In this document: positions 24,213 through 34,514 of the stretch, piece by piece
Numbering within the stretch: the first letter of the stretch is position 1
Layout of the letters: the number at the start of each line of letters is the position of its first letter
Source: Chitinophagaceae bacterium
GTDB taxonomy: Bacteria > Bacteroidota > Bacteroidia > Chitinophagales > Chitinophagaceae
NCBI GenBank assembly: GCA_046296295.1
Contig: JBKBLG010000004.1
Coordinates: 60,187 to 124,186, forward strand
Reading direction: 5' to 3'
DNA length: 64,000 bases
The notes under the pieces: generated by a model
The model's database searches: none
What the model was told of the DNA's origin: nothing
What the model saw: the letters and a program-made list of their open reading frames with translations, nothing else
Translations under genes and position numbers: made by a program

Positions 24213-25087
24213 TACAATACGTTTAAAATTTGTTCTTTGGCTTTTTCTAATTCGTCTTTCATGAGCACAACAATTTTCTGGATGTCGGCATCGTAGGCTT
24301 TGCTACCGGTAGTGTTAATTTCTCTGCCAATTTCTTGAATAATGAACGATAGTTTTTTGCCCTTACCTTTATCGGGTTCTTGCAGCATAGTTTTGAAATA
24401 CTGCAAATGATTCGATAAACGTACCTGTTCTTCGCTAATATCTATTTTCTCGATATAATAAATTAACTCTTGCTCTAGGCGGTTAGTATCGTAATGTTCA
24501 GGGCCTAATTGCTCTTCGAGCAATTTCACCAAACCTTCTTTGATTTTTGTACGACGATTGGGGGCCAACGCTTGAATAGCAGCTTGGTGTTGGGTTATAG
24601 CGGCAATACGTTGCAACAAATCTGCTTCTAGTGCTGCGCCTTCTTCTTTTCGATGTTGGTTGAGTGCTTCTATGGCCGAAGATAGTACCGGTATAAAACT
24701 ATGATACTCGGCTTCGCTCAATATTTCTGTAGGTGGTGCTACTACTTCCGGCATGCGCAAGATAGCAGCTAAAACCCCCTCCATATTCCAGCCCTTTTCT
24801 GCTGCAATTTGTTGCAGCGGCTCGTAATATGCAGCCACTAAATCGGTATTAATAGCCAACGATTTTGCTGCACCATTTTGTTTTAGATAAATGCTACACT
24901 CTACGCTGCCACGCTCTAAGCTAGCAGCAATACGGTTGCGAATATCAATTTCGTAGGGTTTCAATAAACTGGGCAGTGTAAGCCTAACATCAAGCTGCTT
25001 GCCGTTAAGGCTACGTATGTCTACAATAAAATTTTTATCGCCTATGGTTTGCTCGGCCCTTCCGAAGCCGGTCATTGAAAAAAGCAT
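24212..25087 (-). CDS. yicC: YicC/YloC family endoribonuclease
   Basis: N-terminal MLFSMTGFGRAE...IRSLNGKQLDVRL and C-terminal EIGREINTTGSKA...VVLMKDELEKAKEQILNV are YicC hallmarks. Confidence 0.85.
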   Translation of the reverse strand: MLFSMTGFGRAEQTIGDKNFIVDIRSLNGKQLDVRLTLPSLLKPYEIDIRNRIAASLERGSVECSIYLKQNGAAKSLAINTDLVAAYYEPLQQIAAEKGWNMEGVLAAILRMPEVVAPPTEILSEAEYHSFIPVLSSAIEALNQHRKEEGAALEADLLQRIAAITQHQAAIQALAPNRRTKIKEGLVKLLEEQLGPEHYDTNRLEQELIYYIEKIDISEEQVRLSNHLQYFKTMLQEPDKGKGKKLSFIIQEIGREINTTGSKAYDADIQKIVVLMKDELEKAKEQILNVL

Positions 25088-25325
25088 CCGCAAGTATTTA
25101 GTATGGCAAAGTAAGCAGCTTTAAGCATATCTTTTTGTTATAGGCAAGCGTAACAAACAACAAAACAACCATTGAACTGACTGAAAATATAAAATAACAG
25201 GACGACATATAAACTTAACAGCAGACTTTTTCTGACACGAAATCCCAACACTTCGTGATAACAGCGATGGGCCTTAAAAACATAAATTAGCAGTCTAAAA
25301 AAGAATTCTTATTTAAAAGAGGATA

Positions 25326-26990
25326 ATGGCAAAACAAAAAGCGACCCTTCGACAGGCTCAGGGTAAAAACGAAGAACCCCTCGAAAAACAACTCTGGAAA
25401 GCAGCCGACAAACTCCGCAAGAACATTGATGCTGCGGAATACAAACACATTGTATTGGGGTTAATCTTCCTGAAATATATCTCCGATGCTTTTGAAGAAT
25501 TGTATGCAAAACTAAAAGCAGACGAAGCCAACGGTGCAGACCCCGAAGACAAAGACGAATACAAAGCAGAAAATGTGTTCTTTGTACCGCAGGATGCCCG
25601 ATGGAATTATTTGCAATCGAAAGCCAAACAACCTGAAATCGGAAAGTTTGTGGACGATGCCATGGATGCTATTGAAAAAGAAAATGCTTCCCTCAAAGGC
25701 GTGTTGCCCAAGGTATATGCCCGACAAAATTTGGACCCGACAAGTTTGGGTGAACTGATTGACCTGATTGGCAACATTGCCTTAGGCGATGCCAAAGCAA
25801 GAAGTGCCGATGTGCTCGGACACGTTTTTGAATATTTTCTGGGTGAGTTTGCCTTGGCAGAAGGCAAGAAAGGCGGACAGTTCTACACGCCAAGAAGCGT
25901 GGTGGAATTATTGGTGGAGATGCTGGAACCCTACAAAGGACGAGTGTTTGACCCTTGCTGTGGTTCGGGTGGAATGTTTGTGCAGAGCTTGAAATTTGTT
26001 GATAGCCATGCAGGCCGTGTAAACGATATCTCCATTTACGGACAAGAGAGCAACCAAACCACCTGGCGACTGGCTAAAATGAACCTGGCCATTCGTGGCA
26101 TTGATAGCTCACAGGTGAAATGGAACAACGAAGGTTCTTTCTTAAACGATGCACACAAAGACCTGAAAGCTGATTTTATAATTGCCAATCCACCGTTTAA
26201 TGTGAGTGATTGGGGCGGTGAATTGATGCGGAATGATGGACGTTGGCAATACGGCATACCACCCACAGGCAACGCCAACTTTGCCTGGATGCAACATTTT
26301 ATTTACCACTTAGCACCCAACGGACAAGCTGGTGTGGTGTTGGCAAAAGGTGCTTTGACCTCTAAAACCTCAGGCGAAGGCGAGATTAGAAAAGCACTGG
26401 TTGAAAACGGCTTGATTGATTGCATTGTAAACCTACCGGCCAAATTGTTTTTAAATACCCAGATTCCTGCTGCCTTATGGTTTATGAGCCGCAACCGTAA
26501 AAACGGAAAATTCCACCACCCCGCCACCACAGGTGGCACCCCTCCACGGGAGGGGAATTTTCGAGACCGCAGCAACGAGATTTTATTTATTGATGCCCGC
26601 AACTTGGGCCATTTGATCAACCGCAGAACCCGTGAACTCTCACCAGAAGACATTGCCAAAATTGCCGGCACTTACCACGCCTGGAGAAATTCCCCTCCTT
26701 TGGAGGGGGCAGGGGGTGGTCAATTCCCCCCCACTGGAGGGGTGCCCGAAGGGCGGGGTGGTTACGAAGACATCCCCGGCTTTTGTGCCTCCGCCCCCAT
26801 CAGCAAAGTGAGAGAACTCGACTATGTGCTTACACCGGGCCGCTATGTAGGCTTACCCGATGAAGAAGACGACTTCAATTTTGCCGAACGCTTTACCTGC
26901 TTAAAAGCAGAACTGCAAGCACAGATGGCAGAGGAAACAGAATTAAACGATAGAATCAAAAGGAACTTGCATAAAATTCAAATTATCTAA
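25326..26990 (+). CDS. hsdM: Type I restriction-modification system methyltransferase subunit M (with in-frame repeat insertions)
   Basis: HsdM N-domain [37 protein letters not shown] motif [10 protein letters not shown] and catalytic [17 protein letters not shown]-like sequence upstream. Confidence 0.95.
26515..26559 (-). repeat. GC-rich palindromic REP-like unit, reverse orientation, in frame in hsdM
   Basis: ACCACCCCGCC...CCCCTCC-acg-GGAGGGGAATT, translated as [15 protein letters not shown]. Confidence 0.85.
26688..26762 (+). repeat. REP-like unit doublet, forward, in frame in hsdM
   Basis: AATTCCCCTCC-ttt-GGAGGGG... plus AATTCCCCCCC-act-GGAGGGGTGCCCGAAGGGCGGGGTGGT, translated as [25 protein letters not shown]. 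Confidence 0.9.
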
Positions 26991-27001
26991 TTTTCAATAA
27001 A

Positions 27002-27922
27002 ATGAACTACGACATAAAACTCATTAATAATTTCGAAGGTAAAGGGCGTATTGAACTTGACCGAATGGAATTTTTGGCAAAGCACATAAAAAGCATTGCT
27101 CAAAAGGCTTTACTGCTGCAACTCTATGGCTATAGTAAGGTTTCAATGCCAAAGAACTTAAATAAATATCTGCATGTATTTCTAACACAAACTGCCGGGG
27201 TTGATGGTAATACTATTCTCACGTTGGATGCAGATAATTTTCAAAATATCCTAGTACAGTTAGATTTATTTAAAGAGAAACAAGCTCTAAATACACTTAC
27301 ACCAATGGCTTTAGTGATTAAGTCATTCACTGCTGCATTATATGATGAAGAAGATAAAAATATGATTGATGAACCGCTTATTGATGAATTATTAAAGTTT
27401 AAAAAGTTTTTTCAAACTGATACAGAAAAAGTATTACTTACTAACCGGAGTACAATACCGGAAATTGAATTTTCTCGAAAAGAAATAGATAAAATCGAGA
27501 GCTTATTTAAAACAATACCACAACCACAAAAAACAGTGGTAGCCGGTGTGATTGATGAAATGAAGTTTTCAAGAGAGCAGGTAATTTTAACTACCACTGA
27601 AAATAAAAAGATAGTAGTAATTGTTGCCAAGGAGCTTTTTCAAGACTTAAAGGAGTTTTTTGGACAGGAAATAGCCATCAATGGAATGGCTCATTTTAAG
27701 CCGGGAGGGCAATTATCGTATGTTAAAATGGAAAGCTTTGGCAATGCGGGGAAAGCCGCAAAAATATTATCAAGAAAGCCGGATAAAATGAACATGCAAC
27801 AGCAGATTGCTTTACAAATCAGAGAAGGGAAAAAACGAAATCCAATGGATGAAATCATTGGAACATGGCCCGGAAATGAGACAGACGAAGAATTTGAGAA
27901 AATGCTAAAAGACCTTGACTAA
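27002..27922 (+). CDS. Hypothetical 306-aa protein, putative partner or antitoxin of the downstream PIN nuclease
   Basis: No motif recognised. Its stop overlaps the PIN start (TAATG). Acidic C-terminal tail IIGTWPGNETDEEFEKMLKDLD. Confidence 0.6.
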   Translation: MNYDIKLINNFEGKGRIELDRMEFLAKHIKSIAQKALLLQLYGYSKVSMPKNLNKYLHVFLTQTAGVDGNTILTLDADNFQNILVQLDLFKEKQALNTLTPMALVIKSFTAALYDEEDKNMIDEPLIDELLKFKKFFQTDTEKVLLTNRSTIPEIEFSRKEIDKIESLFKTIPQPQKTVVAGVIDEMKFSREQVILTTTENKKIVVIVAKELFQDLKEFFGQEIAINGMAHFKPGGQLSYVKMESFGNAGKAAKILSRKPDKMNMQQQIALQIREGKKRNPMDEIIGTWPGNETDEEFEKMLKDLD

Positions 27923-28374
27923 TGAAAAACATACTTTTAGACACAAATATCCTCATACACTTAAATAGAGGAAAGGAAAAAGCTCAAAAGGTTCGTGAAT
28001 ATGTGGCGAGCTTAAGCGAACCACAAGTATTTATTTCTGTGGTGAATTTAGCTGAAGTGGAAAGTTTGGTTGTGCAATGGAAAATGCCTGATGAAGCTGT
28101 TAAACGACTTAGGAGCAATATGAACAAATTTGTGTGTATTGATATTGAGCAAAATAATCAGGTTCTGTTAGACGCTTATGTAAATATCGATTGCTACAGC
28201 AAGAGAAAAATTAAAGGACCTGATGGCAAACTTATTCCAAATGGTGCAATTGGAATGAAGAAGAACGACCTCTGGATTGCAGCTACAGCCCATGCTTTAG
28301 ATGCCGTGTTACTTACCACCGATGGAGATTTTGACCACTTAGAAAACCTATATTTTGAACTTAAGAAGTTTTAG
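27922..28374 (+). CDS. PIN-domain nuclease (VapC-like)
   Basis: Conserved acidic positions in ILLDTNILI, NLAEVES, NDLWIAATA and LLTTDGDF, typical of VapC-type PIN toxins. Confidence 0.8.
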   Translation: MKNILLDTNILIHLNRGKEKAQKVREYVASLSEPQVFISVVNLAEVESLVVQWKMPDEAVKRLRSNMNKFVCIDIEQNNQVLLDAYVNIDCYSKRKIKGPDGKLIPNGAIGMKKNDLWIAATAHALDAVLLTTDGDFDHLENLYFELKKF

Positions 28375-28375
28375 C

Positions 28376-29557
28376 ATGAGTGAGTGGAAAGAATATAAAT
28401 TAAAAGATTTGGGAAGAGTTGTTACAGGCAATACTCCATCAAGTAAATTTCCTGAAGAATTTGGAAATGAAATGCCGTTTGTAACACCTTCTGATTATAA
28501 AAATTATAACAAGTGGATTTCGTTTGCTGATAGAAATTTATCTCAAAAAGGAATTGAGAAGTTACAAAGCCGTTTGCTACCTAAAAATTCATTGCTTGTT
28601 ACTTGCATTGGTTCAGATATGGGAAAAGTTGCAATCAATAAAATCCCTGTTATTTCTAATCAGCAAATCAATTCAATAATTCCAAATGAAAATGTTGATG
28701 CTGATTTTCTATACTACAAATTAGTTGAGAGCTATGATGTTTTGAGAATGTATGGAGAAGCAGGAACAGCAGTTCCGATAGTAAATAAGACAGATTTTGA
28801 AAACATTGAAATAGAAATTCCTTCAGAAAAATCCGAGCAAACCGCCATAGCCGAAGTGTTAAGCAGCTTAGACGACAAAATAGACCTGCTGCACCGCCAA
28901 AACGCCACCTTAGAAAAAATGGCCGAAACGCTGTTTAGGCAGTGGTTTGTGGAGGAAGCGAAGGAGGAGTGGGAAGAAGGAACTTTAGATGATATCCTTT
29001 CTGTAAAAGGTGGAACAACCCCAAGTACCGCTGAACCTAGTTATTGGAATGGAACAATTCATTGGACAACACCAAAGGATATTACCAATTTAAACGGATT
29101 ATTTTTATTTGATACCGAAAGAAAAATAACAGAATTGGGCTTATCAAGAATCAGCTCTGGTTTGTTACCCATAGGAACACTCTTAATGACCTCAAGGGCA
29201 CCTGTTGGTGTATTAGCATTTGCAGAAATTCCGTTAGCTATAAATCAAGGTTATATCGCAATTATTGCCAACAAAGGCTATTCAAAAGAATTTATCTACC
29301 TCTGGCTAAAGACAAATATTGATGTAGTGCATAGTTTCTCTAATGGTTCAACTTTTATGGAGATTAGTAAGTCAACTTTTAAAACATTACAGCTACAGAT
29401 TCCTCCAAGTGATGTATTAAATAATTTTCAATCGATTGTAGCCCCCTTATTTACCAAAATAAAATCAAACTCAATCCAAATCCGCACCCTCACCGCCTTG
29501 CGGGATACCTTGTTGCCAAAGTTGATGAGTGGGGAGGTGAGGGTTGAAATGAATTAA
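28376..29557 (+). CDS. hsdS: Type I R-M specificity subunit S
   Basis: Two target-recognition domains are separated by the conserved helix LDDKIDLLHRQNATLEKMAETLFRQWF, and the protein ends in LRDTLLPKLMSGEVRV. The ATG lies 1 nt after the PIN stop. Confidence 0.9.
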   Translation: MSEWKEYKLKDLGRVVTGNTPSSKFPEEFGNEMPFVTPSDYKNYNKWISFADRNLSQKGIEKLQSRLLPKNSLLVTCIGSDMGKVAINKIPVISNQQINSIIPNENVDADFLYYKLVESYDVLRMYGEAGTAVPIVNKTDFENIEIEIPSEKSEQTAIAEVLSSLDDKIDLLHRQNATLEKMAETLFRQWFVEEAKEEWEEGTLDDILSVKGGTTPSTAEPSYWNGTIHWTTPKDITNLNGLFLFDTERKITELGLSRISSGLLPIGTLLMTSRAPVGVLAFAEIPLAINQGYIAIIANKGYSKEFIYLWLKTNIDVVHSFSNGSTFMEISKSTFKTLQLQIPPSDVLNNFQSIVAPLFTKIKSNSIQIRTLTALRDTLLPKLMSGEVRVEMN

Positions 29558-29562
29558 AAAAT

Positions 29563-30141
29563 ATGCAGCAATACAATCCAAATATTCACCATCGCAAATC
29601 CATCCGTTTAAAAGGATACGATTATACGCAGGCAGGATTGTATTTTATTACCATTTGTTGTAACCGTGGGGGCGAATTGCATTCGCCCTTTGGATACATC
29701 GAAAACGGACAAATGATATTGAATGAATACGGACAAATTGCCTATAATGAATGGATGAAAACCCCGGAAATACGACCGAATGTTGAATTGGGGGCATTCA
29801 TCATAATGCCCAACCACATGCACGGTATTATCCGGTTATTGGGTAGGGGCGAATTGCATTCGCCCAATGAAACGGGCATATACGATATGCCCGAACCGCC
29901 CGATAATGGGGGCGTTTGCAAAACGCCCCTACAGTCACCATCACAAACCGTTGGTGCCATTGTTCGTGGTTACAAATCATCGGTTACCAAACGATTGGGT
30001 TTGTTGGGATTCAATGGCAAATTATGGCAACGCAATTATTACGAACACATCATTCGCAACGAACTATCCTATCAAAACATTTCGAATTACATCATCAACA
30101 ATCCTGCAAAATGGCAGGAGGATAAATTTTTTATTGCATGA
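29563..30141 (+). CDS. IS200/IS605-like Y1 (HUH) transposase, REP-associated tyrosine transposase (RAYT)-like
   Basis: HRKSIRLKGYDY..AGLYFITIC, HUH motif MPNHMHGII, and catalytic Tyr region GKLWQRNYYEHIIRNE. No IS ends are visible. The stop overlaps the hsdR start (ATGA). Confidence 0.8.
   Translation: MQQYNPNIHHRKSIRLKGYDYTQAGLYFITICCNRGGELHSPFGYIENGQMILNEYGQIAYNEWMKTPEIRPNVELGAFIIMPNHMHGIIRLLGRGELHSPNETGIYDMPEPPDNGGVCKTPLQSPSQTVGAIVRGYKSSVTKRLGLLGFNGKLWQRNYYEHIIRNELSYQNISNYIINNPAKWQEDKFFIA
29668..29688. repeat. Palindromic hairpin GGGGCGAATTGCATTCGCCC inside the RAYT ORF (copy 1)
   Basis: Identical 20-mer at 29846-29865. Translated in frame as GGELHSP. Confidence 0.85.
29846..29865. repeat. 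Palindromic hairpin GGGGCGAATTGCATTCGCCC inside the RAYT ORF (copy 2)
   Basis: Exact repeat of copy 1. Translated as GRGELHSP. Confidence 0.85.
29909..29929. repeat. Second type of palindromic hairpin (GGGGCGTTTgcaAAACGCCCC) inside the RAYT ORF
   Basis: Imperfect palindrome translated as GGVCKTPLQ, in the variable region between the HUH motif and the Tyr motif. Confidence 0.7.
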
Positions 30142-33100
30142 CCCGCATCAACGAAAATACCATAGAATCCTTTGCCATCGAGTTGCTCGAAAAACTTGGT
30201 TATGCGTATATCTATGCTCCTGATATTGCACCCGAATTCTCCTCCTTTGGAGGGGTGGTCGCAGACCGGGGTGGTCAATTCCCCTCCAATGGAGGGGTGC
30301 CCGAAGGGCGGGGTGGTCAAGATACCCGCGACAGCTATGCACAGGTTTTGTTATTGAACCGATTGCAAAATGCCGTAAAAAGAATCAATCCCGGTATTCC
30401 GGCCGATGCACAGGCAGAAGCCATCAAAGAAATTCAGCGTATTGCCTCACCTGATTTGCTTGCCAACAATGAAACCTTTCATCGTTTATTAACCGAAGGT
30501 ATTCCCGTTTCAAAACGTGTGGATGGAGACGACCGGGGCGACAGAGTTTGGCTGATAGATTTTAAAAATCCGCACAACAACGATTTTGTGGTAGCCAATC
30601 AATTCACCATCATTGAAAACGGAAACAACAAACGACCTGATGTAATTCTTTTTGTGAATGGAATTCCGTTGGTGGTCATCGAACTAAAAAATGCAGCAGA
30701 CGAAAACACCACCATCCATTCAGCCTTCAAGCAAATAGAAACGTATAAAGCCATCATTCCAAGCCTGTTTACTTACAATGGTTTTGTAGTTATTTCAGAT
30801 GGTCTGGAAGCCAAAGCAGGTTCCATCTCTGCGGGCTTTAGTCGTTACATGGCTTGGAAATCGGCTGACGGCAAAGCCGAAGCGTCGCATTTGGTGAGTC
30901 AGTTAGAAACCTTGATTCAAGGCATGCTGAACAAAGCAACCTTGATTGACTTAATCAGGCATTTCATTGTTTTTGAAAAAACTACAAAGCAAGAAAATCA
31001 TGGGAATCATGAAATCAAGCAAATCACGGTTCAGACAACTAAAAAATTAGCAGCTTATCATCAATACTATGCAGTAAACAGAGCCGTTGAATCAACACTT
31101 CGTGCAGCAGGATTTAATTCCCCTCCTTTGGAGGGGTGGTCGCAGACCGGGGTAGTTCATTCCCCTCCTGCGGAAGGATGGCAGACGCAGTCTGACGGGG
31201 TGGTAAAAAGAGCCAGTAAAAACTACTTCGAACTTCCCTACAACCCTAAACTCAAAGAAAGGGCAAGAGAACTTCGACAGGCAGGAAATCTATCGGAAGT
31301 ACTTTTCTGGAATCAGGTGAAGAACAAACAATTTAAAGGCTTCGATTTCGACAGGCAGAAAATCATAGGAAACTACATTGTTGACTTTTATTGCAGTAAT
31401 TGCCAGGTGGTAATTGAAATTGATGGCTGTAGTCACGATGATAAGGTGGAATATGATGCGGAAAGGGATTCCTATTTAAACTCCTTGGGATTGACTGTTA
31501 TTCATATTCCCGTAGCAGATGTATTGCAGCGAATGGGAAGTGTGATGGAAATGCTTTCTAACCACCCCGCCTTGCAGGCACCCCTCCAAGGGAGGGGAAT
31601 TGACCACCCCGCCCTATCGGGAACCCCTCCTGAGGAGGGGAATTTGGTGCAGGAATCACCCAAAAGTTATGGCCTGCCCGGAGTGAAGAACCAACCTATT
31701 GGCGATAAAAAGGGCGGCGTTGTTTGGCATACGCAGGGGAGCGGAAAATCATTATCCATGGTTTTCTACACAGGGAAAATCGTTTTGGCTTTAGATAATC
31801 CAACAGTACTTGTTATTACAGACCGCAATGATTTGGACGACCAACTGTTTGACACCTTTGCGGCATCGAAACAGCTATTAAGACAAGAGCCTGTTCAGGC
31901 AGAGGATAGAAACCATTTAAAAGAATTATTAAAAGTAGCCTCTGGCGGTGTGGTGTTTACAACCGTTCAGAAATTTCAACCCGAAGAAGGCAATGTGTAT
32001 GAATTACTCTCCGACAGAAAAAACATCGTCGTCATTGCCGATGAAGCGCACAGAACGCAATACGGCTTTAAAGCAAAAACCCTTGATGCCAAAGACGAAA
32101 AAGGAAATGTAGTCGGTAAGAAAATCGCTTACGGTTTTGCAAAGTATATGCGGGATGCCTTGCCCAATGCCACGTATTTAGGCTTTACAGGAACACCCAT
32201 TGAAAATACAGACGTAAATACTCCAGCAGTTTTTGGAAACTATGTGGACATTTACGACATAGCCCAAGCCGTTGAAGATGGCGCAACCGTTCGCATTTAT
32301 TACGAAAGCCGATTGGCAAAAGTGAACCTGAGCGAAGAAGGCAAACAATTAGTTGAAGAGCTTGACGATGAACTGGAACAAGAATTCCCCTCCTCTGGAG
32401 GGGTGGTCGAAGACCGGGGTGGTTCAAGAGCAAAAGCCAAATGGACACAGTTGGAAGCCTTGGTGGGCAGTGAAAACAGAATTAAGAACATCGCCAAAGA
32501 TATTGTTTCGCACTTTAGTCAACGACAGGAAGTATTTGAAGGCAAAGGAATGATTGTGTGCATGAGTCGCAGAATTGCAGCCGATTTATACGAAGCAATC
32601 ATTGCCCTAAAACCAGAATGGCATTCAGACGACTTAAACAAAGGGGCGATAAAAGTGGTCATGACTTCCGCATCATCTGACGGTCCGAAAATTTCTAAAC
32701 ATCATACCACCAAAGAACAAAGAAGAATACTCGCTGAAAGAATGAAAAATCCCGATAACGAATTACAATTGGTCATCGTTCGGGATATGTGGCTCACAGG
32801 TTTTGACGCACCAAGTATACACACCCTTTACATTGACAAACCAATGAAAGGACATAATTTGATGCAAGCTATTGCAAGAGTAAACCGTGTTTACAAAGAC
32901 AAGCCGGGCGGTTTGATTGTAGATTATTTAGGTATTGCAGCCGATTTGAAAAAAGCACTGGCCTTTTATTCTGATGCAGGTGGAAAGGGCGACCCAACCA
33001 TTTTGCAGGAACAAGCCGTTCAATTGATGTTAGAGAAACTGGAAGTTGTTTCTCAAATGTTTAATGAACTCCCCTCCCGTGGAGGGGTGTCTGCAGGACG

Positions 33101-34013
33101 GGGTGGTTTTCCGTATGAAAGCTACTTTCAAGCCGACACTTCAAAAAAACTATCCATGATTCTGGCAGCAGAAGAGCACATTTTAGGATTGGAAGATGGA
33201 AAGAAGCGATACATCAACGAAGTAACAGCATTGTCAAAAGCCTTTGCCATTGCCATTCCGCATGAGCAGGCAATGGATGCAAAAGACGAAGTTTCTTTTT
33301 TCCAAGCCGTAAAAGCAAGATTGGCAAAGTTTGACGGAACAGGTTCAGGGAAAACAGACGAAGAAATTGAAACCACCATTCGCCAAGTCATTGACAAAGC
33401 GCTGGTCTCTGAACAGGTCATTGATGTTTTTGATGCCGCAGGAATAAAAAAACCAGATATTTCAATTTTATCCGAAGAGTTCTTAATGGAACTCAAAGGA
33501 ATGGAACACAAAAATGTGGCCTTGGAAGTTTTGAAAAAACTCTTGAACGATGAAATAAAATCAAGAGCCAAAAAGAACCTGGTTAAGAGCAGGACATTCT
33601 TAGAAATGTTAGAAAACTCCATCAAGAAATACCACAACAAAATCCTGACAGCAGCCGAAGTAATTGAAGAACTCATCAATCTTAGTAAAGAGATTGTTGA
33701 AATGGACAATGAAGCCAAGCACATGGGCTTGTCAGACTTTGAATATGCTTTTTACACCGCAGTAGCCAGCAACGACAGCGCAAGAGAACTCATGCAACAA
33801 GACAAATTGAGAGAACTTGCCGTAGTGCTGACAGAAACCATAAGACAAAACGCATCCATTGACTGGACCATTAAAGAAAGTGTAAAAGCTAAATTGAAAG
33901 TTGCAGTAAAAAGAATATTGAGAAAATACGGTTATCCGCCCGACATGCAAATGTTAGCTACAGAAACCGTTTTAAAACAAGCCGAAATGATCGCAAACGA
34001 AATAACGGCATAA
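30138..34013 (+). CDS. hsdR: Type I restriction enzyme subunit R (1291 aa, expanded by in-frame insertions)
   Basis: N-terminal PD-(D/E)xK block DVILFVNGIPLVVIELK, helicase motif I GGVVWHTQGSGKS, motif II VVIADEAHRTQ and motif VI LMQAIARVNR. About 250 extra residues come from repeat units and a DUF559-like module. Confidence 0.95.
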   Translation: MTRINENTIESFAIELLEKLGYAYIYAPDIAPEFSSFGGVVADRGGQFPSNGGVPEGRGGQDTRDSYAQVLLLNRLQNAVKRINPGIPADAQAEAIKEIQRIASPDLLANNETFHRLLTEGIPVSKRVDGDDRGDRVWLIDFKNPHNNDFVVANQFTIIENGNNKRPDVILFVNGIPLVVIELKNAADENTTIHSAFKQIETYKAIIPSLFTYNGFVVISDGLEAKAGSISAGFSRYMAWKSADGKAEASHLVSQLETLIQGMLNKATLIDLIRHFIVFEKTTKQENHGNHEIKQITVQTTKKLAAYHQYYAVNRAVESTLRAAGFNSPPLEGWSQTGVVHSPPAEGWQTQSDGVVKRASKNYFELPYNPKLKERARELRQAGNLSEVLFWNQVKNKQFKGFDFDRQKIIGNYIVDFYCSNCQVVIEIDGCSHDDKVEYDAERDSYLNSLGLTVIHIPVADVLQRMGSVMEMLSNHPALQAPLQGRGIDHPALSGTPPEEGNLVQESPKSYGLPGVKNQPIGDKKGGVVWHTQGSGKSLSMVFYTGKIVLALDNPTVLVITDRNDLDDQLFDTFAASKQLLRQEPVQAEDRNHLKELLKVASGGVVFTTVQKFQPEEGNVYELLSDRKNIVVIADEAHRTQYGFKAKTLDAKDEKGNVVGKKIAYGFAKYMRDALPNATYLGFTGTPIENTDVNTPAVFGNYVDIYDIAQAVEDGATVRIYYESRLAKVNLSEEGKQLVEELDDELEQEFPSSGGVVEDRGGSRAKAKWTQLEALVGSENRIKNIAKDIVSHFSQRQEVFEGKGMIVCMSRRIAADLYEAIIALKPEWHSDDLNKGAIKVVMTSASSDGPKISKHHTTKEQRRILAERMKNPDNELQLVIVRDMWLTGFDAPSIHTLYIDKPMKGHNLMQAIARVNRVYKDKPGGLIVDYLGIAADLKKALAFYSDAGGKGDPTILQEQAVQLMLEKLEVVSQMFNELPSRGGVSAGRGGFPYESYFQADTSKKLSMILAAEEHILGLEDGKKRYINEVTALSKAFAIAIPHEQAMDAKDEVSFFQAVKARLAKFDGTGSGKTDEEIETTIRQVIDKALVSEQVIDVFDAAGIKKPDISILSEEFLMELKGMEHKNVALEVLKKLLNDEIKSRAKKNLVKSRTFLEMLENSIKKYHNKILTAAEVIEELINLSKEIVEMDNEAKHMGLSDFEYAFYTAVASNDSARELMQQDKLRELAVVLTETIRQNASIDWTIKESVKAKLKVAVKRILRKYGYPPDMQMLATETVLKQAEMIANEITA
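30235..30318 (+). repeat. Tandem doublet of 42-nt REP-like units, in frame in hsdR
   Basis: AATTCTCCTCCtttGGAGGGGTGGTCGCAGACCGGGGTGGTC plus AATTCCCCTCCaatGGAGGGGTGCCCGAAGGGCGGGGTGGTC. Each is 42 nt (14 codons). Translated as [29 protein letters not shown]. Confidence 0.95.
31116..31204 (+). repeat. REP-like unit doublet (forward), left flank of the DUF559 cassette
   Basis: AATTCCCCTCCtttGGAGGGGTGGTCGCAGACCGGGGTAGT plus a more diverged second unit ending GACGGGGTGGT. Translated as NSPPLEGWSQTGVVHSPPAEGWQTQSDGVV. Confidence 0.9.
31205..31559 (+). other. DUF559 (Vsr-like PD-(D/E)xK endonuclease-fold) module embedded in frame in hsdR
   Basis: ELPYNPKLKERARELRQ...SEVLFWNQVKNKQFKGFDFDRQKIIGNYIVDFYC....VVIEIDGCSHDDKVEYDAERDSYLNSLGLTVIHI matches the standalone DUF559 protein pattern (R.LR..T.aE..LW...FrRQ..ig.yivDF.c....lviElDG..H...yD..R...L...G..v). 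Confidence 0.8.
31560..31644 (-). repeat. REP-like unit doublet (reverse), right flank of the DUF559 cassette
   Basis: AACCACCCCGCC..CCCCTCCaagGGAGGGGAATT plus GACCACCCCGCC..CCCCTCCtgaGGAGGGGAATT. Translated as NHPALQAPLQGRGIDHPALSGTPPEEGN. Confidence 0.9.
32383..32423 (+). repeat. Single REP-like unit, in frame in hsdR
   Basis: AATTCCCCTCCtctGGAGGGGTGGTCGAAGACCGGGGTGGT, translated as EFPSSGGVVEDRGG. Confidence 0.9.
33067..33107 (+). repeat. Single REP-like unit (5' end diverged), in frame in hsdR
   Basis: AACTCCCCTCCcgtGGAGGGGTGTCTGCAGGACGGGGTGGT, translated as ELPSRGGVSAGRGG. Confidence 0.85.
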
Positions 34014-34343
34014 GTCACACCAGTCAAGACTAAGCCCAAACCTGCAAAAGAGCTTCCGCCTCAACGAGCCTGAAAGAATTTCAAAATATTTTTCCAACCC
34101 TTCAAAAAATACCCCCCGATACACAAGCGCCACAAAAAAGCACCGATTTGACACAAACGAACGATATAAAAATGGTCTGTTCATGACAGACAAGAACGCC
34201 AGCCTAGAACAGCGGTTGGGGGTAATGGCGGGTACAATGGTAATATTGAAATGTAGTTTTTCAAATCAACATTTGCAGTGTTTTGACAGATTTGTGCTCC
34301 AAAATTCGCCAATAGGCAAAGCTGCAAAACATTAGAAGAAATG

Positions 34344-34412
34344 CCTTACGGTAAATGTGCTTCACAAGCACTTATGAATTCATTGTTATATGTTACTTCA
34401 TTTGCCGTAAGG
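34344..34412. repeat. Inverted pair of 14-mers (CCTTACGGTAAATG ... CATTTGCCGTAAGG), 41-nt spacer
   Basis: First native-type motif after the R-M island, about 100 nt upstream of the MFS transporter ATG. Confidence 0.85.
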
Positions 34413-34514
34413 CTACTTAAAAAAACATTAAAGGCCACAGTATCTTTAAATTGTAGTTGAAAGCTAGCAGCTTGGGCGGTGGGATTGTATCTTTCCAAAT
34501 GAACAAGCTTGCTT

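Follow-up and report, generated by a model that had tools for sequence, protein, structure and literature searches.

A composite element within hsdR

The DNA analysed here, referred to as the window, is a stretch of 64,000 nt from a Chitinophagaceae bacterium (assembly GCA_046296295.1, contig JBKBLG010000004.1, positions 60,187 to 124,186 of the forward strand). It carries a type I restriction-modification (R-M) operon as one block on the forward strand (25326-34013), with the gene order hsdM (554 aa), a 306-aa gene, a PIN/VapC-like gene, hsdS, a 192-aa RAYT-like gene and hsdR (1291 aa). The hsdR gene harbours, in frame, a composite element (31116-31644) in which a DUF559 domain is preceded by a forward doublet, and followed by a reverse doublet, of a GC-rich 42-nt unit. 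This arrangement had been proposed in a preliminary description of the locus made from the sequence alone, and its coordinates were found to be correct within 1 nt. The host gene and the parts of the element are as follows:

30138-34013, + strand: hsdR, the host gene, an intact open reading frame (ORF) of 1291 aa with no internal stop and Pfam matches along its full length
31116-31204, + strand: left terminal inverted repeat, forward units 31116-31157 and 31158-31204 with their AATT heads outward, encoding NSPPLEGWSQTGVVHSPPAEGWQTQSDGVV
31206-31571, + strand: DUF559 / Vsr-like PD-(D/E)xK nuclease domain, HsdR aa 357-478 (clade-specific hidden Markov model (HMM), iE 1.3e-65)
31560-31644, - strand: right terminal inverted repeat, reverse units 31560-31601 and 31602-31644, encoding NHPALQAPLQGRGIDHPALSGTPPEEGN

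The host protein has the organization of a type I HsdR, i.e., an HSDR_N nuclease (aa 4-233), a superfamily 2 motor (SWI2_SNF2/ResIII, aa 522-748) and the C-terminal domains T1R_D3-like and T1RH-like_C (aa 948-1287), and it is encoded in an operon with hsdM and hsdS. The preliminary description had noted a block of about 200 aa between two normally close motifs, and had read the insertion as stop-free with the hsdR frame left open; both points were borne out, the landmark motifs being ~208 aa apart in the window HsdR and 32 aa apart in empty homologues (GF-TVEHETPLSMVMESPESYGVPGVKNQPIGDRK-GGVVW).

Within the element the first hairpin of the second forward unit (31158-31204) is degenerate, with 2 mismatches, and the inner reverse unit overlaps the final codons of the DUF559 block (..SNHPAL). 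Complementarity is 81% over 42 nt between the arms 31116-31157 and 31560-31601, and 91% over 22 nt between 31116-31137 and 31623-31644; as a single strand the left and right doublets pair with each other and enclose the core (z = -4.6). The length of the element, 529 nt, is not a multiple of 3, so that its boundaries are uncertain by 1 nt. Read in the inverted orientation in the hsdR frame the element contains stop codons. Its sole ORF is DUF559, and no recognised transposase family is encoded.

Alignment of HsdR homologues, which had been suggested as a way to find a target-site duplication, revealed none: the junctions (GGATTTA/AATT...AATT/TGGTG) lack a direct repeat, and 23-27 nt of the empty-allele linker are replaced by the element and not retained. 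In the related insertion of locus L007 the ends read AAGTT and AACTT, and the termini are thus inverted, not duplicated. Searches of 25000-34500 of the window against Rfam gave no family at E<=1, which rules out a known RNA family as the identity of the repeats, and no Hint or intein Pfam domain is present in HsdR.

The hairpin core of the unit, CCCCTCC-N3-GGAGGGG, occurs 11 times in the window (<=2 mismatches) against 0.02 copies expected from shuffled sequences. All 11 copies fall within hsdM or hsdR (26539-33087) and none in the remaining ~55 kb; together the two genes hold seven unit clusters, and both ORFs are intact. The consensus unit has no stop codon in five of its six frames and encodes Gly/Pro/Ser-rich peptides, which depending on the frame are of the type NSPPLEGW..GVV, FPS.GGV..RGG or HPAL..TPP.EGN.

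Family, fold and selection of the DUF559 domain

The nuclease assignment of the preliminary description was confirmed by a PF04480 match of 100.2 bits (cut-off 20.6; E=7.5e-29) to HsdR aa 371-472, corresponding to nt 31248-31553, which spans profile positions 2-103 of 109. The domain also matches the sequence of 3HRL (E=2.3e-16), and the clade-specific HMM identified no second DUF559 in the 64-kb window. In an AlphaFold2 model of HsdR aa 300-545 the DUF559 core has a predicted local distance difference test score (pLDDT) of 82-95, while its unit-encoded flanks have no secondary structure and a pLDDT below 50. DUF559 is thus modelled as a separate Vsr-like domain carried on disordered, unit-encoded linkers, and the prediction agrees with the earlier suggestion of an independent domain on a loop. 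Foldseek comparison of the model returned 3hrl (TM 0.78, root-mean-square deviation 2.6), 3r3p (TM 0.66-0.73) and 1cw0 (TM 0.50); the nearest structures are the DUF559 protein 3HRL, the catalytic domain of I-Bth0305I (a homing endonuclease), PvuRts1I/AbaSI and Vsr, and the fold is of the Vsr-like alpha/beta type.

The Asp, Glu, Asp and His of the motif ..VDFY..EIDG..H.. are invariant in 61 HsdR-embedded copies. Across four HsdR alleles omega was 0.025-0.044 for DUF559, a constraint equal to that of the helicase core, and the DUF559 of the HsdR copies examined is under strong purifying selection. In the same four alleles synonymous divergence (dS) was saturated for DUF559 (>=2) against 0.6-1.1 for the host backbones, and identity at four-fold sites was 0.33-0.46 against 0.54-0.61, with two of the six pairs individually significant. 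Free-standing relatives begin with a Met where HsdR has Lys357 (MR.TK.Y against KRASKNY); the copy in hsdR lacks its own start codon and depends on hsdR translation.

Filled and empty hsdR alleles

The distribution of the module was determined in the best 120 relatives (clusters) of the window HsdR. At least 110 of these clusters, with 74-89% identity and from several phyla, carry PF04480; they include Paraflavitalea, Pleomorphovibrio, Flagellimonas/Allomuricauda, a gammaproteobacterial metagenome-assembled genome (MAG) and a Nostoc record. The module lies at one site in all filled HsdRs, GF-N-[units]-DUF559-[units]-V(Q/M)-ESPESY, and the flanking units are invariably present around it, the arrays varying in number. 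The view that the module had landed in this genome in particular therefore had to be abandoned, since so many HsdR clusters share it at the same position that the architecture must be regarded as common in the databases. The preliminary description had also considered that distant HsdRs might carry the same domain at this site without any repeats, and this is not what was found, as the repeats always accompany it. Units recur at further HsdR sites, namely at reference positions 32-38, 553 and 772.

Ten of the best 120 relatives are empty and read GF-TVEHETPLSMVM-ESPESY. The closest protein to the window HsdR is one of these empty homologues, P0083 (95.5% aa identity over 1063 shared columns, compared with 92.8% for the best filled one), and when P0083 was used as the query at least 120 empty HsdRs were retrieved at 92-95% identity, indicating that empty alleles are abundant. 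The search for further copies and for empty sites that had been recommended thus yielded both. The P0083 locus, L001, holds an operon of the same type with no unit anywhere, a 511-aa hsdM and no DUF559; its hsdR DNA is 92% identical to that of the window, and its empty site reads GGATTTACTTTAGATAGAGAAACGCCATTGAATATGGTG. Up to both junctions the window hsdR DNA is nearest to L001 (85-98% per 150-nt window), while against three filled alleles the values are 73-95%, with region averages of 83-88%. Protein windows beside the insert resemble filled alleles more, as a co-conversion tract might cause, but partly through misaligned linker columns, while the DNA is closest to the empty L001. The dS is ~0.3 between the window and L001 and ~0.8 between the window and another empty allele. 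In a neighbour-joining tree of HsdR, which has no support values and in which recombination is likely, empty alleles appear in at least five places among filled ones. As the nearest backbone is empty and empty alleles are scattered, presence of the module does not follow, and is uncoupled from, the hsdR backbone.

The module is probably passed on together with hsdR alleles. The DUF559 DNA of four filled alleles is ~81% identical and not above the identity of the backbone, and a recent transfer of the module between the sampled hsdR alleles was rejected. Empty alleles as deletion scars were likewise considered, the idea having been prompted by a MAFFT alignment which paired TVEHETPLSM with TVIHI.. 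and TPPEEGN; in local DNA alignments the linkers of L001 and L129 were within the shuffle null against four elements, except for the shared host flank, and the scar idea was rejected.

In P0041, P0035 and related HsdRs the units have grown into tandem in-frame arrays at site 297 and sites 32-38, with up to nine tandem copies of SPSLKGWHQPAADDGVVN (54-nt period) preceding DUF559 in P0041. HsdRs with such arrays are 1373-1462 aa long, and the PF15143 matches in them are probably spurious products of the arrays. Other HsdRs with DUF559 hold in addition an in-frame 94-aa GIY-YIG module (LPAP..GIY..YIGQT....RQAG), after reference position 315 in P0053 and at position 772 in P0113 (L131 4254-4535), where it occupies the site of a solo unit of the window; PF01541 is also listed for P0069 and P0099. 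The L131 module has short GC-rich inverted ends (CTGCCCGC / GCGGGCAG), and a second nuclease family appears to share the lifestyle of the DUF559 module.

The element in other genes

A composite with the same nucleotide ends is met again in unrelated genes, in intergenic positions and in many phyla. When HMMER was run exhaustively with the DUF559 core (HsdR aa 355-479) as the query, 18,894 cluster representatives (50% identity) matched at E<=1e-3, of which 117 reached E<=1e-30. Some of the near relatives (55-86% identity) are free-standing, with a length of 130-200 aa, and the others form part of longer proteins; unit-type peptides lie on either side. In a strict census of 150 representatives the unit peptide motif was detected in 39 of the 101 with at least 25 aa upstream and in 31 of 85 downstream, and these figures are too low, since unit variants diverge and the ORFs of free-standing copies frequently start within the element.

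According to Pfam, DUF559 splits Queuosine_synth in two in QueA and Lyase_1 in two in a class II fumarase, lies within two Mur ligases, and is also found in HsdS (three cases scanned), a Type ISP enzyme and two methylases, one of the Eco57I/MmeI type and one N6_N4. In L007 (QueA, GC 37.5%) and L008 (fumarase, GC 49.7%) it is located between inverted TTCCCCTCC-N3-GGAGGGGTG units whose arms are 96% and 95% complementary, respectively. In a clade of Planctomycetaceae fumarases a hypervariable loop at position 129 carries the long element in two members (P0135, P0389) and, at the same site and with the same unit variant (NSPPSEGWHFAQQNDGVV ... HPAEGGE), a short form in P0397; several relatives at 73-77% identity have no insert there. 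In a DUF559 tree of low resolution the HsdR copies form essentially one block with seven non-HsdR sequences interspersed, including the methylase P0121 and P0126 (type ISP-like by eye only), a topology which suggests that the module entered hsdR once, long ago, and switched hosts a few times.

The QueA gene of L007 (1804-3366) has two DUF559 insertions. One is intact and near the N-terminus; the other, at the C-terminal end, is internally deleted and extends to the stop codon, and may truncate the protein. The fumarases P0391 and P0396 carry unrelated inserts of 145-166 aa (..GLSGLEGLAEGDGFDGGNL..) after position 129, and many further fumarases have inserts of 16-38 aa and varied sequence in this loop, which is extremely permissive and hypervariable.

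The repeat unit as a dispersed family

A scan with one exact unit pattern, covering one genome per species, yielded at least 120 unit stretches. These come from Chryseobacterium (many species), Flavobacterium, Pseudanabaena, "Porisulfidus" and Clostridium and, among the matches listed, from Patescibacteria, Rickettsiales, Chlorobiaceae, Cloacimonadales, Planctomycetaceae and others. Each unit comprises AATT, the hairpin CCCCTCC-N3-GGAGGGG, a variable second hairpin and a GGGGTGGT tail. The first hairpin has an invariant 7-bp stem and a free 3-nt loop. The second hairpin was found in 111 variants which differ in length and sequence, frequently with GCGAAGC-type loops, and its stem has at least 4 bp in 82% of cases compared with 15% for shuffled sequences; its structure is thus conserved and its sequence is not. 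Only 15 of 142 units lie within long ORFs among the matches listed, and most units are therefore intergenic.

The DUF559 of this clade is encoded in 12 of the at least 120 unit loci, in all 12 cases within 23-283 nt of a unit, and the other 108 loci have units without DUF559, so that nuclease-less loci are ~9 times as common as nuclease-linked ones. No RAYT homologue was detected in the ~0.9 Mb around these loci. Among the matches listed, converging pairs (a forward followed by a reverse unit) have a bimodal spacing, with 10 pairs at 400-700 nt and 12 at 88-151 nt. Nine of the 10 wide pairs were shown to enclose DUF559; in those close pairs that were read, the units are separated by an AT-rich centre of 25-60 nt. 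Both the long and the short form occur in Chryseobacterium species. In L062, where a long and a short form are neighbours, the short one still has the DUF559 start codon and ~50 nt of leader at the same repeat end, which identifies it as an internal-deletion derivative; the DUF559 of the long form is frameshifted. Within genomes the dispersed copies are near-identical and share lineage-specific second hairpins and flanks, a sharing which is the pattern expected of within-genome amplification. The earlier notion of a nuclease cargo between terminal inverted repeats is in line with these data, as the composite exists in unrelated genes and free-standing and is accompanied by nuclease-less derivatives.

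The loop of the first hairpin varies among near-identical dispersed copies (TTT, TGT, TCT, TTC, CTT), as in L013, L026, L038, L047, L048, L060, L070 and L077 of "Porisulfidus" and in L010, L057 and L061 of Pseudanabaena, with a stem that is constant across phyla. The loop seems to be free or hypermutable and the stem constrained in sequence. The long and short elements of L062 (2230-3080; Chlorobiaceae MAG) are arranged head to tail in an array with similar spacers of ~25 nt (TTTCTCTCACGGATCCTCTTCTTG, TTTCTTCCCCGCCAATCCTTCTTC) and recall clusters of the bacterial interspersed mosaic element (BIME) type.

Other units and genes of the operon

Besides the composite element, the following units are present in hsdM and hsdR:

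26515-26559, - strand: single reverse unit in frame in hsdM (hairpin core 26539-26555)
26688-26763, + strand: forward unit doublet in frame in hsdM (from sequence and hairpin core)
30235-30318, + strand: forward unit doublet in the N-terminal loop of HsdR, in another reading frame (from the hairpin core and comparison with L001)
32383-32424, + strand: solo forward unit in frame in HsdR, encoding FPSSGGVVEDRGGS and replacing 18 nt of the unit-free allele
33067-33107, + strand: solo forward unit in frame in HsdR, encoding LPSRGGVSAGRGG, a pure 39-nt insertion with respect to L001

Among 121 aligned HsdRs the first of the three hsdR sites (reference positions 32-38) is filled in 52 and the last (position 772) in 48, and the site at 32383-32424 is rare (6/121). 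The neighbouring genes that bear on the element are:

25326-26990, + strand: hsdM, N6 DNA methylase with in-frame units (TIGR00497 hsdM; 554 aa)
28355-29557, + strand: hsdS specificity subunit, with no units (Methylase_S, E=4e-53)
29563-30141, + strand: RAYT-like Y1 transposase gene between hsdS and hsdR (NF047646 REP_Tyr_transpos, 55.9 bits, cut-off 80)

The RAYT-like gene, whose stop overlaps the hsdR start, is probably outside the element. It holds three in-frame GC-rich palindromes of a family distinct from the element unit (29669-29688, 29846-29865 and 29910-29928; two copies of GGGGCGAATTGCATTCGCCC and one of GGGCGTTTGCAAAACGCCC), which translate as ..RGGELHSP.. and ..GGVCKTPLQ.. and have no further copy in the 64-kb window. 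The NF047646 match remains below its cut-off because these palindromes split it. No counterpart of this gene was present in the five homologous operons examined (L001, L004, L005, L006, L129). The layout of the window operon is repeated in L001 and L129, and in the six operons compared the stretch from hsdS to hsdR is a slot for variable cargo, with the following contents:

window 29558-30137: RAYT
L001 8455-9984: SLATT_6+SMODS
L004 7233-10004: AAA_21/SMC-like ATPase
L005 9036-10004: gene with no assigned function
L006 4174-7503: GmrSD_N+AAA_15
L129 7359-9004: Mrr_cat+Abi_C

The slot looks like a docking site for defence genes within type I R-M operons. Between hsdM and hsdS (27002-28374) the 306-aa ORF, which has no Pfam or NCBIfam match, and the PIN/VapC-like ORF overlap by an ATGA motif. 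ORFs of equal length are found at the equivalent position of L001 (306 aa with no Pfam match, and a PIN protein of 150 aa), and the two may form a pair that resembles a toxin-antitoxin system or is accessory to this R-M family. The hsdM protein is identical to MFN4006652.1 of a Chitinophagaceae MAG and the RAYT-like product to MFN4006656.1. An exact match to the 1291-aa HsdR is absent from the assembly index, in which hsdM and RAYT of its contig are present; the deposited annotation of hsdR may use a different start or call a pseudogene.

Discussion

We consider, with a probability of about 60%, that positions 31116-31644 of the window represent one copy of a composite selfish element, in frame and translated, with the DUF559 protein that it encodes as the candidate mobility enzyme. 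The element would be a small Vsr-like (DUF559) endonuclease gene placed between inverted two-hairpin GC-rich units, and the family would exist in three forms: a long form of ~0.5 kb, a short form reduced by internal deletion to a centre of 25-60 nt, and solo or tandem units. In hsdR the long form would occupy the linker between the nuclease and motor domains, where the units, read as stop-free Gly/Pro/Ser-rich peptides, would act as disordered linkers; with such linkers and a separately folding DUF559, HsdR would stay intact. As for mobility, we infer that DUF559 nicks or cuts at the hairpin units or at element-free sites and that the element and its derivatives without a nuclease are subsequently copied through repair or replication by the host, so that DUF559 might be to the units what RAYT is to repetitive extragenic palindromic (REP) sequences or a transposase to MITEs (miniature inverted-repeat transposable elements). 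Survival of insertions solely in permissive loops is proposed as the reason for both the in-frame copies and the shared "hot spots".

Several observations weigh against this interpretation. We know of no Vsr-family enzyme that moves DNA unaided. There is no target-site duplication, and 23-27 nt of host linker are replaced. The HsdR DUF559 sequences are essentially one clade, and most of the HsdR data can be explained by one old insertion that was then inherited and recombined, with no need for recent transposition; with the DUF559 DNA of four filled alleles only ~81% identical, no recent copy is among them. The long retention and the strong purifying selection would be expected equally of a domain beneficial to the host. 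It should also be noted that the trees are neighbour-joining trees with no support values, that the hit lists are skewed by the type of query, and that the unit scan rests on a single exact pattern and at least 120 stretches.

The main rival is a domesticated second nuclease, i.e., a DUF559 which, whatever its origin, is kept for host benefit as a working part of HsdR, for example as a nicking or mismatch-type activity aiding restriction or DNA processing. We regard it as rather unlikely, and it is compatible with a selfish origin of the module. The low omega (0.025-0.044), the catalytic residues invariant in 61 alleles, the retention of the domain at one site in at least 110 HsdR clusters despite saturated dS, the intact nuclease and motor domains of HsdR itself, and the skew of embedded copies towards R-M proteins (HsdR, HsdS, Type ISP, Eco57I/MmeI and N6_N4 methyltransferases) would all be accounted for by a host function. 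However, QueA, fumarase and Mur ligases, in which a role for a nuclease is not obvious, are split by closely related modules with these repeats, free-standing copies with frameshifts occur, and HsdRs free of both units and DUF559 are numerous and very conserved in the same type of operon. A role at the protein level, moreover, leaves the conserved DNA hairpins on either side unexplained. A plain ancestral domain fusion, with flanks that are products of chance or low complexity and no mobile-element history, is the least probable of the explanations considered; the single site in all filled HsdRs and the largely single HsdR clade of the DUF559 tree agree with it, but it is contradicted by the flanks, a defined repeat (11 copies in the window against 0.02 expected) that many phyla have both with and without DUF559, and by the occurrence of the identical composite in unrelated genes, and the nearest backbones are empty.

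Two further explanations start from the repeats. In the preliminary description the units had been termed REP-like, and in form and dispersal this is apt; an assignment to the REP/RAYT system is not, as no RAYT was found near the at least 120 unit loci. It is accordingly improbable that ordinary REPs are moved in trans by the RAYT (29563-30141) in the manner of REPINs, which are inverted REP doublets, with DUF559 as passive cargo. The presence of a RAYT-like gene inside this very operon, and of units that are dispersed, palindromic and in inverted doublets as those of REPINs are, would suit such a mechanism, but RAYT is lacking from ~0.9 Mb around the unit loci and from operons which do have units and DUF559 (L004, L005, L006), the palindromes within the RAYT gene belong to a different family, and passive cargo would not explain why DUF559 adjoins a unit in 12 of 12 cases. 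With no RAYT near the unit loci and none in five other operons, RAYT as the mobiliser was rejected. An invertible ON/OFF switch, in which inversion of the 355-nt core would put stops into hsdR and make restriction phase-variable, is more improbable still. Inverted repeats of 42-85 nt do flank the core, the inverted element does have stops in the hsdR frame, and DUF559 proteins are enriched among predicted targets of programmed inversion (PMC9881135). That enrichment is the only, and indirect, trace of the arrangement in the literature and is expected from the inverted repeats alone, since these would produce it; in addition, no recombinase gene was identified among the operon ORFs examined, no inverted allele was seen among the homologues listed, and this architecture is also seen in intergenic positions and in housekeeping genes, for which a switch is implausible.

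The selfish element that we favour has points in common with several known systems. It resembles REP/REPIN-RAYT systems in its short, GC-rich, dispersed palindromes, in the recurrent inverted doublets, and in a repeat-flanked protein-coding "master" gene which the repeats far outnumber. It differs in that its protein is a Vsr-like PD-(D/E)xK nuclease whereas RAYT is an HUH tyrosine transposase, in that no RAYT linkage was found, in its unit of two hairpins and a conserved tail, and in copies which are also translated inside genes. Translated palindromes are reportedly known as Rickettsia palindromic elements (RPEs), selfish palindromic DNA said to have been described in frame in protein-coding genes by Ogata and colleagues in 2000. 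Most frames of both are free of stops, and both are tolerated by otherwise intact proteins in linker or surface regions; RPEs, however, have no gene and are confined to one genus, whereas the long form of the present element contributes a nuclease ORF as an extra domain and is found in many phyla. Terminal inverted repeats, long coding and short internally deleted forms with common ends, and near-identical copies within a genome are shared with insertion sequence (IS) elements and MITEs, from which the element is set apart by the lack of a known transposase family and of a target-site duplication. To our knowledge its size of ~0.5 kb is also far below that of any IS.

By HMM and fold the window domain belongs with the DUF559 proteins (E. 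coli YcjD/PRK09767, N. gonorrhoeae NGO0050, PDB 3HRL) and Vsr. Vsr, the characterised relative, is a T:G mismatch nicking enzyme linked to Dcm; for DUF559 itself we know of no function. What distinguishes the window domain is its tie to hairpin repeats and its in-frame residence, which are absent from the literature searched. The catalytic fold (Foldseek, 3r3p) and an E-x-D...H-D motif (EIDGCSHD) are shared with the EDxHD / Vsr-like homing endonucleases (I-Bth0305I and the "fractured genes" family), which possess an additional DNA-binding region and are located either in group I introns or between the halves of split inteins (PMC3239194, PMC2677866). Filled and empty alleles at one site among close relatives are another likeness. 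Unlike these enzymes, the element has neither an intron (no Rfam match) nor an intein/Hint domain, and its module of ~120 aa stays in the mature protein, is bounded by hairpin inverted repeats and is found at many unrelated sites.

The protein architecture is already common and auto-annotated in databases, the annotation name given by the Joint Genome Institute (JGI) to HsdR+DUF559 being "R subunit/very-short-patch-repair endonuclease". A full-text search, with most subscription journals outside its reach, found no description of DUF559 as an in-frame or repeat-flanked element, and no published description of the composite repeat element was found. It could represent a new class if the nuclease proves to drive mobility. 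The broad form of this proposal, in which the DUF559 proteins of this clade would be the mobility enzymes of a new, phylum-spanning group of ~0.5-kb hairpin-ended mini-elements that are translatable inside essential and defence genes with neither introns nor inteins, is put forward tentatively and we hold it to be doubtful.

With 18,894 clusters at 50% identity matching the domain, DUF559 is among the largest uncharacterised nuclease families, and the link to hairpins, which rests on the fixed hairpin unit, the long and short forms, the dispersal across phyla and the in-frame residence in several protein families, gives it a testable function as a nuclease serving or exploiting a hairpin repeat family. 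Domain insertions in restriction and housekeeping enzymes can thus be selfish DNA which needs no splicing, with a bearing on the annotation of "fusion" proteins and on R-M diversity, and such insertions are a possible source of compact structure-specific nucleases. If DUF559 has been domesticated in HsdR, the result would be a type I restriction enzyme with two nuclease domains. If instead it drives its own mobility, these would be the smallest autonomous DNA elements known in bacteria, spawning MITE- and REP-like derivatives, and part of the DUF559 family would acquire a function in a third "REP-type" system beside RAYT/REP.

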